DNA of 64,000 bases from an uncultured delta proteobacterium (lineage in GTDB: Bacteria > Desulfobacterota > Binatia > Binatales > Binataceae): positions 166,970 through 230,969 of the forward strand of contig CAVTEN010000021.1 in the NCBI GenBank assembly GCA_963733715.1, given 5' to 3'. Under the pieces are notes generated by a model, which saw nothing but the letters and a program-made list of their open reading frames with translations, was not told the DNA's origin and did not search any database. The position numbers and the translations under genes are program-made. Below, piece by piece: positions 43,230-56,722 of this stretch (within the stretch, counting starts at the first letter, position 1; each line of letters begins with the position of its first letter).

Positions 43230-44804
43230 TTGATGACGCCTTCGCTGGCGCGCATAGCAGAATCTTTGAAAATTCAAGACTCGCCCAGCCTTGCCGTTCG
43301 TGAATCGGACGAACGACTGTACAAGGAAGCTATTTTCGCGCTGGCGGAGGCCAATAGAACTGAGGAAGCGATAGCGCTGGCTCGTCGCGCTCATAAGTCG
43401 TTCCCCAATCTACGATACTTTCAACTATGGGAAGCGCTCATGCTTCCGGTCCTATATGACACCGAGGAACAAATCGACCACTACCGGGCGCGATATTCCG
43501 CCGGCCTCGCCGAGGGTATAGCGGGTTTCAACTTAGATGACTCCGGAGATCGTCGGGCGGCGCTGGACGCGGTAAGCCGCCATCTTAATTTCTATCTTGG
43601 CTACCAGGGCCGCGACGATCGGGAATTGCAGGAGCAATACGCCCGGTTCGTCCACGCGGTGATGGCGGCGAACTACCCGGATTGGGTAAAGCCGATTGCC
43701 ATGCCGCCTCTCCGTCGTGGAGAGAAGATCCGGGTCGGCTATATCTCGGCGCACTTTCGCGATCATAGCGTCGCGAAACTTTTTTCCGGCTGGCTTCAGG
43801 AACTTGATCGCGGCGAGTTCGAACCGTTCGTCTATCACAACGGACAGACGGCGGACGCGGTTACCGATGATATCCGCCAAATGACCGATCATTTTCGCCA
43901 CATACCGGGAGTCCTGGAGCCGCTGTGCCAGGCAGTCGCGGCTGACAATCTGCATATCGCAGTGTTTCTGGACGTGCGGCATCGGCGCATGATGATGACG
44001 TCCTCATTGCGCCTGGCGCCGGTGCAGTGTGTTGCCTGGGCTCATCCGATCACTTCGGGATCGCCGATGCTCGACTACTATCTGTCGGGCGACCTGATGG
44101 AGCCCGAGGATGCGCAAGACCACTACTGCGAGCGCCTGATCCGCTTGCCGGGCCTGGGAGTCTGCTATCCGAAGCCGATGATTCCGAGGCCGCTGCTGCG
44201 AAAATCCCGCGCCGACTTCGGTCTCAGCGAGGACCGGATCGTGTTCCTTTGTTGTCAGTCAATCTTTAAATATCTTCCGCAGCACGACGATCTCTTTGTC
44301 CGTGTCGCGAAGCGGCTCCCCGCCGCCCAGTTCGTGTTTTTGGCGCTTAACGAAGCGGTCGCCAGGGACTTTCTGGTGCGATTGCGCCGTGCTTTCGCGG
44401 CACAGGGGCTCGAGGCTTCGGATCACTGCGTCATTCTCCCGATCCTCGGCAAATTCGACTACTGGAATCTGAATCTGCTCGCCGACGTATTTCTGGATTC
44501 CCTCGAGTGGTCCGGTGGAGTAACCACACTCGAAGCTATCGCCTGCGGGTTACCCATTGTTACGCTGCCAGGACGTTACATGCGCGGAAGACACAGTTAC
44601 GGGATTCTCACACAGTTGGGCATTACGGACACCATCGCTCACGACAAGGACGAGTACGTGGAGATCGCCGTCCGGCTCGGCACGGATCGTGAGTGGCGTA
44701 CAGATGTGCTCAACCGAATGACGGCGAACCAGGCGCGGCTTTACTCCGATACCAAGTGTGTCCGGGCGCTGGAAGATTTCTTTCGATCGGTAGTCCTGGC
44801 CTGA
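43230..44804 (+). CDS. GT41-family glycosyltransferase (bacterial OGT/SPINDLY-like) with helical N-terminal region
   Basis: RVGYISAHFRDHSVAKLF and VAWAHPITSGSPMLDYYLSGDLMEPEDAQDHYCERLIRLPG are typical of COG3914/Glyco_transf_41 proteins (family recognised from memory). Confidence 0.6.
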   Translation: MMTPSLARIAESLKIQDSPSLAVRESDERLYKEAIFALAEANRTEEAIALARRAHKSFPNLRYFQLWEALMLPVLYDTEEQIDHYRARYSAGLAEGIAGFNLDDSGDRRAALDAVSRHLNFYLGYQGRDDRELQEQYARFVHAVMAANYPDWVKPIAMPPLRRGEKIRVGYISAHFRDHSVAKLFSGWLQELDRGEFEPFVYHNGQTADAVTDDIRQMTDHFRHIPGVLEPLCQAVAADNLHIAVFLDVRHRRMMMTSSLRLAPVQCVAWAHPITSGSPMLDYYLSGDLMEPEDAQDHYCERLIRLPGLGVCYPKPMIPRPLLRKSRADFGLSEDRIVFLCCQSIFKYLPQHDDLFVRVAKRLPAAQFVFLALNEAVARDFLVRLRRAFAAQGLEASDHCVILPILGKFDYWNLNLLADVFLDSLEWSGGVTTLEAIACGLPIVTLPGRYMRGRHSYGILTQLGITDTIAHDKDEYVEIAVRLGTDREWRTDVLNRMTANQARLYSDTKCVRALEDFFRSVVLA

Positions 44805-50256: not shown

Positions 50257-50367
50257 GACGACTCCATGGCAAATAGTTTCGCGCCGGCTGAAATTGTAGC
50301 CGCTCAGGGCATTTCCATCAAAGCCCGAGTATCGCTTATGCTCTCCGAGAATCCAGACGAGGACGCA

Positions 50368-50718
50368 ATGGAACGGATAACCCTTTTTCACAATCCTGGC
50401 TGAGGCAACTCGAAAGGCGCGCTCGAGATACTTCGGGCGCGCGGTGTCGAGTTCGACACCATCGAATATCTGAAAGATCATCCGACGCGCGAGCGCCTCG
50501 AGAAAATCATCGAGATGCTCGACGTTCCCGTCGCCGACCTGGTCCGCAAGGACAAGCGCTTCAAGGAGCTCGGCCTGAATCCCGCCGACTACACCGACAA
50601 GAAGACGGTCGTCGCGCTCCTGCTGAAATATCCCGAACTGATGCAGCGCCCAATCGTAATTCGCGGCAAGCGCGCAATCATCGCGCGTCCCCCAGAAAAA
50701 CTCGAAGCGTTGTTGTGA
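50368..50718 (+). CDS. arsC: ArsC-family (glutaredoxin-coupled type) arsenate reductase with in-frame TGA at the catalytic Cys position (candidate selenoprotein)
   Basis: The ATG at 50368 gives MERITLFHNPG-TGA(50401..50403)-GNSKGALEILRARG, in the same frame as track ORF 50515..50718. It aligns with E. coli R773 ArsC ITIYHNPAC12GTSRNTLEMIRNSG and downstream RPIV. Confidence 0.6.
50417..50442 (+). promoter_or_regulatory. SECIS-like hairpin 13 nt downstream of the in-frame TGA
   Basis: gcgcgctcgag / ataC loop / cttcgggcgcgc forms an 11-bp stem (two G-U pairs) with apical loop AUAC, or GAUACU if the closing G-U opens. Confidence 0.35.
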
Positions 50719-50746
50719 AACCTCTCCGAAGGGAGAGGTTTTTCTT
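50719..50746 (+). terminator. Rho-independent terminator after arsC-like gene
   Basis: aacctctcc-gaag-ggagaggtt (9-bp stem) followed by tttttctt. Confidence 0.7.
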
Positions 50747-50748
50747 AA

Positions 50749-50809
50749 CACTGGGTGCAGGGGTCACCCCTGCCGAAGGAAGTGTGAAACCCACCGCGGG
50801 TTTCACATT
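50749..50809. repeat. 61-bp double-hairpin intergenic repeat, copy A
   Basis: cactgggtgcaggggtcacccctgccgaaggaagtgtgaaacccaccgcgggtttcacatt contains hairpins gcagggg-tca-cccctgc and tgtgaaaccc-accgc-gggtttcaca. Confidence 0.85.
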
Positions 50810-50822
50810 AAATCAAGTGCAT

Positions 50823-51011
50823 TCAGGCGCTCTTCTTGACCTTGCCCGAGCGGATACATCGCGTGCAGACCAGGATTCGCCGCACGTTGCCGTTAATCTC
50901 GGCGCGCACTTCCTGCAGGTTGGGATTCCACCGCCGCTTGGTCTTGTTGTTGGCGTGACTGACGTTGTTGCCGACTGACGGCTGCTTCTTGCAGTATGCG
51001 CAATGTCTCAT
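50823..51011 (-). CDS. rpmB: 50S ribosomal protein L28
   Basis: [33 protein letters not shown]..., typical L28. Confidence 0.9.
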
Positions 51012-52292: not shown

Positions 52293-52457
52293 CGTTTGAG
52301 TGATGCAGCTGAAACCCTGAAAGGGAATTCGCCGCGCCGAGAGCTTTTCAAAACCCGCCGCGATCTTCAACCCGCGCAACAACTATCCCCCGATTTTTGA
52401 CGCCATGGCGGCGAGTTGCATGAGTATCCAGTCCGAAAGCTACAATGTCTAGTCGTT

Positions 52458-54273
52458 ATGTCCGACCACATCGTCCACATCCTGCCCGAACAAGTCGCCA
52501 GCCAGATTGCGGCCGGCGAAGTCGTCGAGCGTCCGGCGTCTGCCGTCAAGGAGCTGGTCGAGAACTCGCTCGATGCGGGCGCGCGCTCGGTGAGCGTCGA
52601 GATTCTGGGCGGCGGATCGGCGCTGATCGCGGTCGCCGACGACGGCGCCGGCATGACGCGCGCCGACGCGATCCTTTCGCTCCGCCGTCATGCGACCTCG
52701 AAGATTCGCAGCGCCGCCGACCTGACCGCGATTCGTACGCTCGGATTTCGCGGCGAGGCGCTCGCCTCGATCGCCAGCGTATCGCATCTGCGGATGCAGA
52801 CCCGCCGCGCCGCCGATGAACACGGCGTCGAGGTCGCAGCCGAAGCCGGCAATATAGAGGATACCCGCACCTGCGCGATCGCGGCGGGCACGCGAATCGA
52901 AGTTCGCGAACTTTTCTTCAACACTCCGGCGCGCCTCAAGTTCCTGAAGACGCTCGCGACCGAGCAGGGCGCGATAGCAGAATCTTTCCAGCGCGTCGCG
53001 CTCGCCAATCATCATATAGCGTTCCGTCTGTCCGCCGACGGCCGCGTCGTCTTCGATTTGCCGCGCGCCAACTCGGTGCTCGAACGATTCCGGCAAGTGT
53101 TCGGTCCGAAGATCTCTGGCAAAATGCTGGCGTTCGATCTCGATCGTCCCGGAATTCGCGCGCAAGGACTGGCCGCGTCCAGCCAGGAATCGTTCGCCAC
53201 TGGCAGGATGATTTTCACGTTCGTCAACGGCCGCTCGGTTCGCGATCGAATGCTGATTCGTGCAATCGAGCAGGCCTATCAGACGCTGATTCCGCGCGGA
53301 CGTCATCCGGCGACGATGCTGTTCGTCGACATCCGCCCCGAAGATGTCGACGTCAACGTGCATCCGATGAAAACCGAAGTGCGATTTCGCAACGGCGGCG
53401 CGGTTTTCGACGTCGTCTATCACGCCGTTCGCGACCGGCTGGCGGACCAGACCGAAAATGCGCCGGCGCCGGCGTCATCCATCGACGACGCCGCGATGGG
53501 ACTGATCACAATGTCGTCGACGAGCGAGAACTCTCGCGTCGGAGACCCGGCTCCGCGCAGCGACGCTCCTCTGCGGCTGGTCCCCGATGCGCCCAGTCCG
53601 GTCGCGTATCAGCGCCCTCTAACCCTCGCTTACGATCGCGACGCGCGCCCCGGCCGCAAGTCTCGCCTCGCCGATACCCACGGCGCCAATTCCGATGTAC
53701 TCGAAGCTCCGCGTGATCGGACAAATCTTCGCCGGATATATCGCGCTCGAGACCGAGGAAGGGTTGCTTCTGATCGATCAGCACGCGGCGCACGAGCGCG
53801 TCACGTTCGAGAAGCTGCGCCGCGAGCTGCGCGACGGCGGAATTCGCACGCAGGCGATGCTCGCGCCGGTGTCGGTCGAGCTAAACCCCGCTCGCGCTCG
53901 CAAGTGCATGCCGCGATCGGCTGAACTGCGCGCGATGGGCTTCGACCTCGAGCCGTTCGGGCCGACTACACTGTTGCTTAAAGGTGCGCCTGCCGTGTTC
54001 GGCCCCGAAGGCGGCGCGAAGCTTCTCGGCGACATGATCGAGAGCATGGGCGATGCGGGCTTTCGTGGCGGCGGCGAGGCCGCGTTCGAGAACTGGCTCA
54101 AGCAGCTCGCGTGTCACGGCTCGGTTCGCGTCGGGCGCGTGCTCGAGCCGGCGGAAATCCATTCGCTGCTGGCAGAACTCGATCGCACCGAATTCAAGAC
54201 CAACTGCCCGCACGGACGCCCGGTGCATATTCAGTTCGCGCGCGGTCAAATCGAGCGAATGTTTCGGCGATGA
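52458..54273 (+). CDS. mutL: DNA mismatch repair protein MutL; frame broken in the linker near 53600-53690
   Basis: ILPEQVASQIAAGEVVERPASAVKELVENSLDAGA is in ORF 52416..53924. The C-terminal dimerisation domain (VIGQIFAGYIALETEEGLLLIDQHAAHERV) is in ORF 53695..54273. Confidence 0.9.
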
Positions 54274-55240: not shown

Positions 55241-56165
55241 ATGAAAGGCAATCACAACGGACATAAGGCGCGCGGCGGCAAGAATCGCGGCAATGGAATC
55301 GCGACGACCGAGGCGCAGGGGTCGGACCCGCGCAGCGCAATCGAGCGCGTGCGCCTCGCGCGGCATCCAAATCGCCCGCAGACGCTCGACTACATCGAGT
55401 TGCTGATGCGCGACTTTATCGAGATACACGGCGACCGGCACTTTGCCGACGACGGCGCGATCGTAGCGGGCCTCGCCTATTTCGGCCATCGCGCGGTCGC
55501 AGTGGTCGGGCATCAGCGGGGCCGCTCGACCAGCCGAACGAATCAAGCGCAACTTTGGCAAGCCGCATCCCGAGGGCTATCGCAAGGCGACGCGACTTTA
55601 TGAACTGGCGGAGCGGTTCGGCCTGCCTATTATCACGCTGATCGACACGCAGGGCGCAGAGTCCGGCGTCGGCGCCGAGGAGCGCGGGCAAATAGAGGCG
55701 ATCGCGCGCAACCTCGAGCTGATGGCGCGGCTCACCGTACCAATCGTCACTTGCGTGATAGGCGAGGGCGGCTCCGGCGGCGCGATCGCGCTCGGCGTCG
55801 CGAATATAGTCCTGATGCAGGAAAACGCGTGTTACTCGGTGATCACGCCGGAAGGATGCGCCGCGATCTTGTGGCGCGCGGGCGGCGAAGAGAACGTTGC
55901 AGCGGCGGCGTCGGCGCTGAAGTTGTCGGCACCCGATTTGCTCGAGCTCGGATTGATCGACGAGATCGTCCCCGAGCCCGCCGGCGGAGCGCATACTGCC
56001 CCCGCCGAAGCGGCTCATCTGATCGGCGCGGCGCTCGCGCGGCACTTAGAGCGCCTGGTCAAGCTTAAGCCGCAGGAGTTGCGCCGCGCCCGCGAACGAA
56101 AGTTCGCCGCGATGGGCTCGGCGTACCTGACACGCGGCCGCGTCGAGAACGATCCACTTAATTGA
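55241..56165 (+). CDS. accA: Acetyl-CoA carboxylase carboxyltransferase alpha subunit; frame broken near 55525
   Basis: [13 protein letters not shown] and GHQRGR are in ORF 55241..55603. [18 protein letters not shown]...[14 protein letters not shown] is in the frame of ORF 55722..56165. Confidence 0.85.
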
Positions 56166-56225
56166 ATGTGAAACCCGCGATGGGTTTCACACTTCCTTCG
56201 GCAGGGGTGACCCCTGCACCCAGTG
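56165..56225. repeat. 61-bp double-hairpin intergenic repeat, copy B (inverted)
   Basis: The reverse complement is identical to copy A at 60 of 61 positions; the single mismatch is in the second hairpin loop. It starts at the accA stop codon. Confidence 0.85.
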
Positions 56226-56296
56226 ATAACAGTGATCGTAACCTTTTCGCAGCGCCCTGGTTTATCTATTAAGAGCGATCGCAGGAGGTCTTTTCG

Positions 56297-56722
56297 ATGG
56301 ACACGCAGAGCACGCACGCTAGAATTATTCCAGGTATGCGGTATCGCAACGCGCCGGCGGCAATCGAATGGCTGTGCAAGGCCTTCGGCTTCGAGAAGCA
56401 TCTCGTGGTGCCCGATCAGAGCGGCGGCATCGCTCATGCCCAACTCACGTTTGGTGACGGAATGATCATGCTGGGGTCGGTCGGTGGCGGAATGTTCGGC
56501 CGCTTGATGAAGCATCCCGATGAAATCGGAGGCTGCGAGACGCAGAGCGCATACGTGATCGTCCCCGATTGCGACGCGCATTACGCTCGCGCCAAAGCTG
56601 CCGGTGCCGTGGTGCTGCGAGATGTCCAGGATGAGGACTACGGCGGCCGTGGGTACACATGCCGCGATTTAGAGGGTCACATCTGGAGTTTCGGCAGCTA
56701 CGATCCTTGGACGCATTCCTGA
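56297..56722 (+). CDS. VOC/glyoxalase-family protein (PhnB-like)
   Basis: IIPGMRYRNAPAAIEWLCKAFGFE and DYGGRGYTCRDLEGHIWSFGSYDPW. Confidence 0.7.
   Translation: MDTQSTHARIIPGMRYRNAPAAIEWLCKAFGFEKHLVVPDQSGGIAHAQLTFGDGMIMLGSVGGGMFGRLMKHPDEIGGCETQSAYVIVPDCDAHYARAKAAGAVVLRDVQDEDYGGRGYTCRDLEGHIWSFGSYDPWTHS

Follow-up and report, generated by a model that had tools for sequence, protein, structure and literature searches.

Sec-containing ArsC proteins and bacterial SECIS elements

A report of 2006 described ArsC-like selenoproteins in the bacterial genomes of Desulfotalea and Desulfuromonas (PMC1794560). ArsC (TIGR00014/PF03960) carrying a UxxS motif is a published selenoprotein family, known from the Sargasso Sea and GOS data and from reviews (PMC2398784, PMC9312934, PMC13188914); it is listed as COG1393 in a 2022 review (PMC9312934) and as TIGR00014 in a 2026 review (PMC13188914), each time with the UxxS motif. 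An earlier note on this DNA, made from the sequence letters, had mentioned that ArsC-like families were listed in metagenomic selenoproteome surveys, and the same publications bear this out with exactly this motif (PMC2398784, PMC9312934, PMC13188914). No mention of selenoproteins in Binatia or Binatota was found in the literature searched.

The published model of the bacterial SECIS describes a loop of 3-9 nt closed by a stem of 4 bp or more, with a G in the first two loop positions that is usually followed by G or U, a distance of 16-37 nt from the UGA to the loop and a minimum free energy (MFE) of -7.5 kcal/mol or lower (PMC13188914). About 12.6% of bacterial selenoprotein genes in BSepDB are without a canonical SECIS, and elements outside the model are acknowledged there without being described.

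We analyzed a stretch of 64,000 nucleotides (hereafter the window) and found that a gene within it joins the known ArsC selenoprotein family. When compared with the published entry "Arsenate reductase (ArsC) 1" (pfam03960/TIGR00014), the window gene was found to share the domain family, the UxxS motif and the placement of Sec at the catalytic Cys, and marine clades of the same family with a canonical SECIS were recovered in our metagenome scan. In contrast to that entry, the window gene comes from terrestrial Binatia and is followed by tandem hairpins with a GU loop 46 nt from the UGA. The marine ArsC clades with the motifs HNPHU and HNPNUNSSS have one hairpin at 17-23 nt, which differs from the tandem arrangement in Binatia. 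The account as a whole, that of an ArsC-type oxidoreductase with Sec12 that likely reduces arsenate and whose recoding signal consists of two adjacent hairpins (H1 and H2) with SelB acting on H2, is given a probability of roughly 85%.

Gene structure and similarity to R773 ArsC

The features of the locus are as follows, all on the plus strand.

50359..50363, plus strand: putative Shine-Dalgarno GAGGA, 4 nt 5' of the ATG, as suggested by the sequence
50368..50718, plus strand: predicted ArsC-family selenoprotein coding sequence, 116 codons, Sec at codon 12, with its own UGA stop
50401..50403, plus strand: in-frame TGA, the predicted Sec codon, within U-G-N-S (UxxS motif), aligned with the catalytic Cys12 of R773 ArsC
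50417..50442, plus strand: hairpin H1, 11 bp, loop AUAC, starting 13 nt after the UGA; variable, possibly a spacer or helper
50443..50460, plus strand: hairpin H2, GGUGUCG-AGUU-CGACACC, 7 bp, loop at 50450-50453; candidate SelB-binding part of the SECIS
50716..50718, plus strand: TGA stop of the same ArsC-family gene, as read from the frame
50719..50746, plus strand: terminator-like hairpin AACCTCTCC-GAAG-GGAGAGGTT followed by TTTTCTT, core at 50722-50735, 9 bp, directly after the stop

The earlier note had read a frame from an ATG through MERITLFHNPG into a TGA and onward without interruption. We found the same frame, in which the ATG at 50368-50370 and the TGA at 50401-50403 are followed by open sequence up to the stop at 50716-50718, and the listed ORF at 50515-50718 is part of it. 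The gene is monocistronic and has a terminator of its own.

The protein with Cys placed at codon 12 matched PF03960 (Pfam ArsC) over residues 7-114 with an E-value of 7.5e-12. With the same replacement of Sec, the best NCBIfam match was TIGR00014 arsC, which scored 101.1 bits against a curated equivalog cut-off of 106.05. NF041106, a separate UxxC "arsenate reductase-like" family, was absent among the NCBIfam matches; the motif in the window is U-G-N-S. The closest solved structure was that of R773 ArsC (1I9D/1JZW), with an E-value of 3e-18 and residues 1-111 aligned on residues 1-111. As had been claimed from the sequence, this alignment places codon 12, and with it the TGA, on the catalytic Cys12, and the conserved arginines are retained, with R60, R94 and R107 falling on R60, R94 and R107 of R773 ArsC. 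This triad was invariant in all 81 orthologues, as were H8 and S15. Codon 12 occupies the nucleophile position of the HNPxC(x)xS motif, and only Cys or TGA was found at this position in the orthologues. We consider it very probable that this is a real ArsC-type gene in which the catalytic Cys is replaced by Sec at an in-frame TGA.

Sec and Cys at codon 12 across Binatia

Codon 12 was read in 80 orthologous loci from species-representative Binatia genomes. It was TGA in 52 of these loci and TGC or TGT in the other 28, so that the Sec/Cys pair proposed for the catalytic column is present in the alignment of homologues. A protein search placed the organism in Candidatus Binatus / Binataceae; the full-length relatives from there read ...HNPACGNS... 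with Cys, and a second group of relatives comprised near-identical database proteins of 96-99 aa that start just past the TGA position. The gene order, with the arsC-like gene followed by rpmB on the opposite strand, a hypothetical gene, mutL and miaA, was common to both types, and the TGA-type and Cys-type genes are therefore positional orthologues. On a neighbour-joining tree built blind to positions 11-12, at least 15 switches between Sec and Cys were required. Interspersed changes of this kind are the pattern typical of Sec/Cys pairs.

Coding conservation was observed on both sides of the TGA codon. In particular, the amino acids of codons 1-11 were kept while the codons varied synonymously (His8 as CAC or CAT; Pro10 as CCC, CCT or CCG; Gly11 as GGC, GGA or GGT). 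Since codons 1-11 are conserved as protein, the ribosome must read across the TGA, and the start of the gene lies upstream of it.

The TGA could instead stem from a sequencing or assembly error or be the lesion of a pseudogene, or the actual product might start at the ATG at 50515 and have no active site. The window does contain at least one probable indel error, a frameshift in mutL with an extra C in a C-run, and public gene calls yield products that are shortened to 96-99 aa. However, the same TGA was present in 52 other species genomes and in at least 118 metagenome contigs, a recurrence that rules out a sequencing error or a pseudogene, and there is purifying selection on either side of the TGA together with a TGA-specific RNA element downstream. 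A downstream start is likewise opposed by the window sequence, where no ATG, GTG or TTG occurs between the TGA and codon 50, so that starting downstream would delete half of the fold. We regard this explanation in all its forms as exceedingly improbable, and Sec at codon 12 is retained as the preferred reading.

The Sec-type orthologues were found in public protein sets solely as N-terminally shortened products of 96-99 aa that start after the TGA. The shortened entries are P0046, P0054, P0060, P0096 (identical to L007), P0118 and P0056, the last of which has a spurious out-of-frame N-terminus; P0096 (NCBI) bears the name "ArsC/Spx/MgsR family protein", and "arsenate reductase" is the name given in several JGI records.

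UGA is not reassigned genome-wide, because TGA serves as the ordinary stop of most Pfam-supported ORFs in the window (19 of 26) and is also the stop of the ArsC-family gene itself. As a blind control, 5,729 TGA sites with open flanks from the window and 80 related loci (~1.4 Mb) were aligned across loci. The arsC TGA was the only one of these sites with a column made up of Cys codons or TGA alone (for example 22 Cys, 46 TGA and 0 other). We also considered whether the window or the related loci hold a second selenoprotein gene, and with it an independent SECIS, and rejected this, as the other TGA sites were out-of-frame artefacts with Trp, Leu, Arg or extra stops. Among these was the minus-strand TGA at 56015-56017 (55700-56150), which has long open flanks and whose column holds Cys in 14 loci and TGA in 9, so that it resembled a further Sec candidate. 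Its frame is of low complexity, has extra stops in relatives and shows Trp, Leu or Arg at the column, and it was dismissed as an artefact, read out of frame from a conserved gene; the minus-strand ORFs 55416-56045 and 56015-56581 had no Pfam match.

Two side observations concern these loci. The residue before Sec was Gly in all 53 Sec-type sequences of the Binatia clade (HNPGU or HNQGU; 50398-50400 in the window), codon 11 was mostly Ala in the Cys-type orthologues (HNPAC, 68%), and the other Sec-type clades have His, Asn or Arg there; the Gly could reflect a structural accommodation of Se or the context of the UGA codon. Additionally, three loci with a Binatia-like arsC/rpmB/mutL context, L042, L049 and L080, are labelled "uncultured Actinomycetes", "uncultured Gammaproteobacteria" and "Klebsiella pneumoniae", respectively. 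The first 60 codons of the gene are the same in L042 and L040, and the three loci are likely mis-binned or mislabelled contigs.

Two adjacent hairpins downstream of the TGA

The earlier note had also pointed to an 11-bp hairpin beginning 13 nt after the TGA as the expected SECIS. This hairpin does exist (H1, 50417-50442), and a 76-nt region here folds at -36.4 kcal/mol (z = -4.8 against dinucleotide shuffles), but the role of a conserved element linked to the TGA did not hold for H1 and falls instead to H2, which adjoins H1 directly. The two hairpins were compared in an RNA alignment of 53 Sec-type sequences, consisting of the window and 52 loci. In the register of the window, 67% of the H1 cells were paired, many of the departures being merely unpaired cells; a G occupied one of the first two loop positions in 18 of the 53 genes, and H1 was absent from the RNAalifold consensus of the 53 sequences. 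On these grounds, namely the incomplete pairing, the missing consensus structure and the unconserved loop in this alignment, H1 was rejected as a conserved SECIS. Some H1 hairpin of 6-12 pairs was nevertheless always present in the 98 distinct Sec-type sequences of clades A and D (see below). Among these sequences, H1 started 8-13 nt after the UGA in 75 of 98 and ended 0-2 nt before H2 in 91 of 98.

The conservation of H2 was of another order. In the 53 Sec-type sequences, 96.6% of the H2 cells were paired, with compensatory changes at pair 44:59 (GC, AU or GU) and pair 45:58 (UA, CG or GC), and the loop always contained GU (AGUU in 49, CGUG in 2 and AGGU in 2). The inner 6 bp were intact in 53/53 Sec-type genes versus 3/28 Cys-type genes (Fisher 6e-18, a value that is not phylogenetically corrected), and the inner six pairs were also intact in 98/98 distinct Sec-type sequences of clades A and D. 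The apex codons 27-30 (GTC GAG TTC GAC, encoding Val-Glu-Phe-Asp) showed zero synonymous variation in 52 distinct Sec-type sequences, in which every other degenerate codon of the region varied. At the same codons of the Cys-type genes, both the amino acid and the codon varied. We also found that the codons for residues 26 and 31 co-vary, as GGT/ACC, GAT/ATC, AAG/CTC, GGC/GCN and AAC/GTC, which correspond to the residue pairs G/T, D/I, K/L, G/A and N/V; because H2 sits within coding sequence, these codons co-vary so as to keep the stem.

Synonymous resampling, in which codons were recoded with the protein sequence kept and the folding was compared, gave a mean z of -2.55 for H2 in Sec-type genes versus -0.45 in Cys-type genes. 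For H1 the mean z was -1.35 in Sec-type genes, -0.31 in Cys-type genes and -2.3 in the window itself. Over both hairpins of the window, none of 150 synonymous recodings folded as well as the native sequence. Since z is low in the Sec-type genes and near zero in the Cys-type genes, RNA-level selection acts on both hairpins only in genes with TGA at this codon, and it is much stronger on H2. Lineage inertia is an unlikely cause of the contrast between Sec-type and Cys-type genes, because there were many independent switches and the distant clade D has the same hairpin. Other copies of the H2 core GTCGAGTTCGAC were limited to two chance matches, in L001 and L045, neither of which has an in-frame TGA upstream.

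Comparison with the SECIS consensus and proposed recoding mechanism

When the two hairpins were set against the published SECIS criteria, H2 satisfied all of them but the spacing, its loop being located 46 nt after the UGA rather than 16-37 nt; this loop start at 46 nt was found in all 98 distinct sequences of clades A and D. H1 satisfied the spacing (24 nt) but failed the loop-G rule in most sequences. Relative to the bSECISearch/fdhF-type consensus, H2 is similar in its apical loop of 4 nt, where the second position is G and the third is U, and in its stem of 6-7 bp, with a mean MFE of about -9.1 kcal/mol; it is different in the 46-nt spacing and in the second, variable hairpin (H1) that occupies the gap.

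It could be argued that the functional SECIS is H1 by itself, at the canonical distance, and that H2 is an auxiliary element or is kept for ribosome pausing, for mRNA stability or by a protein constraint on V-E-F-D. The H1 loop, at 24 nt, lies inside the consensus range, the canonical SECIS of other Sec-type ArsC clades stands at the same position (GGUC at 23 nt and CGUG at 17 nt), and the stability of the H1 region is higher in Sec-type genes. However, the register and loop of H1 vary as described above, whereas H2 combines an invariant GU loop, compensatory changes and a lack of synonymous variation with decay in the Cys-type genes. A constraint on the protein only cannot explain zero synonymous change at four codons, nor the co-varying codons 26 and 31. 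We therefore consider a signal that consists of H1 only unlikely and prefer H2 as the candidate core of the SECIS.

In bacterial SECIS elements that have been characterised, what SelB recognises is the G-U dinucleotide of the loop. In the proposed mechanism, insertion of Sec at the UGA at 50401-50403 would be directed by an mRNA structure within the coding sequence, in which about 10-13 nt of single strand after the UGA would be followed by the variable H1 and then directly by the conserved H2. The AGUU loop of H2 would present the G-U dinucleotide, and the complex of SelB, GTP and Sec-tRNA(Sec) would bind to H2. The folded H1 may serve as a compact spacer, so that H2 reaches the ribosome entrance while the UGA occupies the A site. 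The recoding signal may be an undescribed SECIS variant.

Searches for the Sec machinery were performed around the gene. There were no tRNA or Rfam matches in the window, a gene neighbourhood that says little about the genome, and no tRNA-Sec in 80 genome loci or 120 metagenome loci, all of which are gene neighbourhoods. Likewise, selA, selB and selD had no tblastn match in the window, the 80 genome loci or the 120 metagenome loci, which as neighbourhoods are uninformative on whole genomes; the probes were E. coli SelD, SelB and SelA sequences validated against NCBIfam.

Sec-type ArsC clades in metagenomes

Metagenome contigs were searched with the DNA pattern T-x-[Y/F]-H-N-P-x-TGA-x-x-S-R, which gave at least 120 matches; in at least 118 of them the frame continues across the TGA as a full-length ArsC-family ORF. 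These ORFs belong to five clades.

Clade A, HNPGU: Binatia-like, 52 among the matches listed; H1-H2 tandem with an AGUU loop at 46 nt
Clade B, HNPHUGSSR: marine, 18 among the matches listed; single hairpin with a GGUC loop at 23 nt (17/17 distinct sequences)
Clade C, HNPNUNSSS: 25 among the matches listed; loop CGUG[A/C] at 17 nt (20/23 distinct sequences)
Clade D, HNPNUxKSR...VEFDVIEY: marine, 13 among the matches listed, without Arg60; H1-H2 tandem with an AGUU loop at 46 nt
Clade E, HNPRU: AT-rich, 2 among the matches listed; weak predicted hairpins only (MFE -7.8 and -4.3 kcal/mol)

A canonical SECIS was thus found in clades B and C, and the tandem architecture was common to clades A and D. 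Clade D includes L094, L098, L111, L112, L119, L135, L137, L142, L143 and L187, which read HNPNU[GS]KSR...VEFDVIEY and have ...MLHSGSF... in place of Arg60. The GUCG-AGUU-CGAC hairpin of the Binatia genes recurs in this clade, likewise 46 nt after the UGA. Since it lacks Arg60, clade D is probably not an arsenate reductase.

We tentatively raise the possibility, to which we give somewhat less than even weight, that the signal of this ArsC clade represents a distinct bipartite class of bacterial SECIS. Such a class would comprise an invariant GUCG-AGUU-CGAC hairpin that begins 39-40 nt after the UGA, with its loop at 46 nt, and an abutting variable hairpin that holds H2 at its working distance, and the RNA constraint would force the co-variation of residues 26 and 31. 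It would be shared by Binatia and the marine ArsC-like clade without Arg60, the other Sec-type ArsC clades having ordinary single hairpins.

Proposed function of the Sec-type protein

The product is predicted to be a 116-residue ArsC-family oxidoreductase with a thioredoxin fold, of the glutaredoxin-coupled type, whose nucleophile would be Sec12. The Sec12 selenolate would attack arsenate held by Arg60, Arg94 and Arg107 and form a Se-As(V) adduct, which would then be resolved by glutathionylation and subsequent reduction by glutaredoxin. This scheme follows the established ArsC mechanism. The protein shares features with R773 / E. coli ArsC (1I9D, 1JZW), being collinear over 1-111 with identical numbering and the same His8, Ser15, Arg60, Arg94 and Arg107, but there are differences: Sec replaces Cys12, the protein has 116 aa instead of 141 aa and is without the C-terminal extension, and the gene is not in an ars operon. 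The protein also belongs to the same Pfam family and the same thioredoxin-like fold class as Spx/MgsR and YffB-type proteins. Its similarity to these was lower, with 58.9 bits for TIGR01617 (cut-off 75) and an E-value of 3.6e-6 for Spx 3L78, and it differs from them in the reductase-typical Arg triad.

Because all catalytic residues of R773 ArsC are kept, arsenate reduction is the most likely activity, and by this analogy arsenate is probably the physiological substrate. A related oxyanion or a thiol-redox substrate is possible, because the gene lies among housekeeping genes and outside an ars operon. The neighbours are a glyoxalase-family gene, rpmB, mutL and miaA, followed by pheA, an aminotransferase gene, tyrA and cmk, and no ars genes (arsR, arsB/acr3) were found among the Pfam-scanned ORFs at ~1-28 kb and 43-64 kb of the window. 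An ars operon context is usual for the ArsC family without being strictly defining. The monocistronic arrangement and the marginally sub-threshold TIGR00014 score also call for caution about the substrate.

The gene might accordingly encode a Sec-containing ArsC-family protein that is not an arsenate reductase but a housekeeping redox protein acting on another oxyanion or on thiols. This would agree with the missing ars operon and with the glyoxalase-family/rpmB/mutL/miaA neighbours, whose synteny extends across Binatia, as well as with a TIGR00014 score slightly under its cut-off and with matches to structural-genomics "putative arsenate reductases" of ~120 aa (3F0I, 3RDW). However, no solved structure matches better than that of the characterised R773 enzyme, neither H8 and S15 nor any member of the Arg60/94/107 triad varies among the orthologues, and the Spx and YffB-like models score far lower. 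We judge such a housekeeping role rather unlikely, and reduction of arsenate is the function that we favour.

Other features of the window

Several further observations were made in the window. The region that separates the terminator of the arsC-like gene from rpmB (50823-51011, minus strand), on the side of the rpmB 3' end, contains a perfect 9-bp inverted repeat, GTGAAACCC-ACCGC-GGGTTTCAC, at 50783-50808. This repeat may terminate rpmB or form a bidirectional element that is shared. The mutL gene (52416-54273, plus strand) is split over two frames, 52416-53924 and 53695-54273, and is one ORF of 608-626 aa in the relatives L001, L002 and L012. The window copy has an extra C in a C-run (GCGCGCCCCGG versus GCGCGCCCGG), with the indel near 53648-53652, and a 6-nt in-frame gap upstream. 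The split is probably a homopolymer assembly error; a real frameshift in mutL is less likely.

A long same-strand gene cluster of polysaccharide or O-antigen type was found at 349-28372 and 43230-44804 among the Pfam-scanned ORFs (~1-28 kb and 43-64 kb). It contains many GT1/GT4 glycosyltransferase genes, GT87 and GT41-like genes and Wza-like exporter domains (Poly_export/SLBB). Additionally, the cluster includes a chain-length regulator of the Wzz/GNVR tyrosine-kinase type, two Wzy_C ligase/polymerase genes, a Wzm/Wzt ABC transporter, FkbM methyltransferases and an asparagine synthase.

Significance

Dozens of Binatia genomes and many metagenome contigs carry this gene, and the catalytic residue and the use of selenium are invisible in current records. 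Because public protein sets hold only the 96-99 aa products, selenium use by a widespread soil lineage has been hidden. The series of 53 Sec-type and 28 Cys-type positional orthologues, with at least 15 switches, helps to ask when Sec is kept or replaced at an active site that handles arsenic. The result for H2 provides a concrete, testable candidate for a bacterial SECIS outside the consensus, in a setting where about one in eight selenoprotein genes in BSepDB is without a canonical SECIS.
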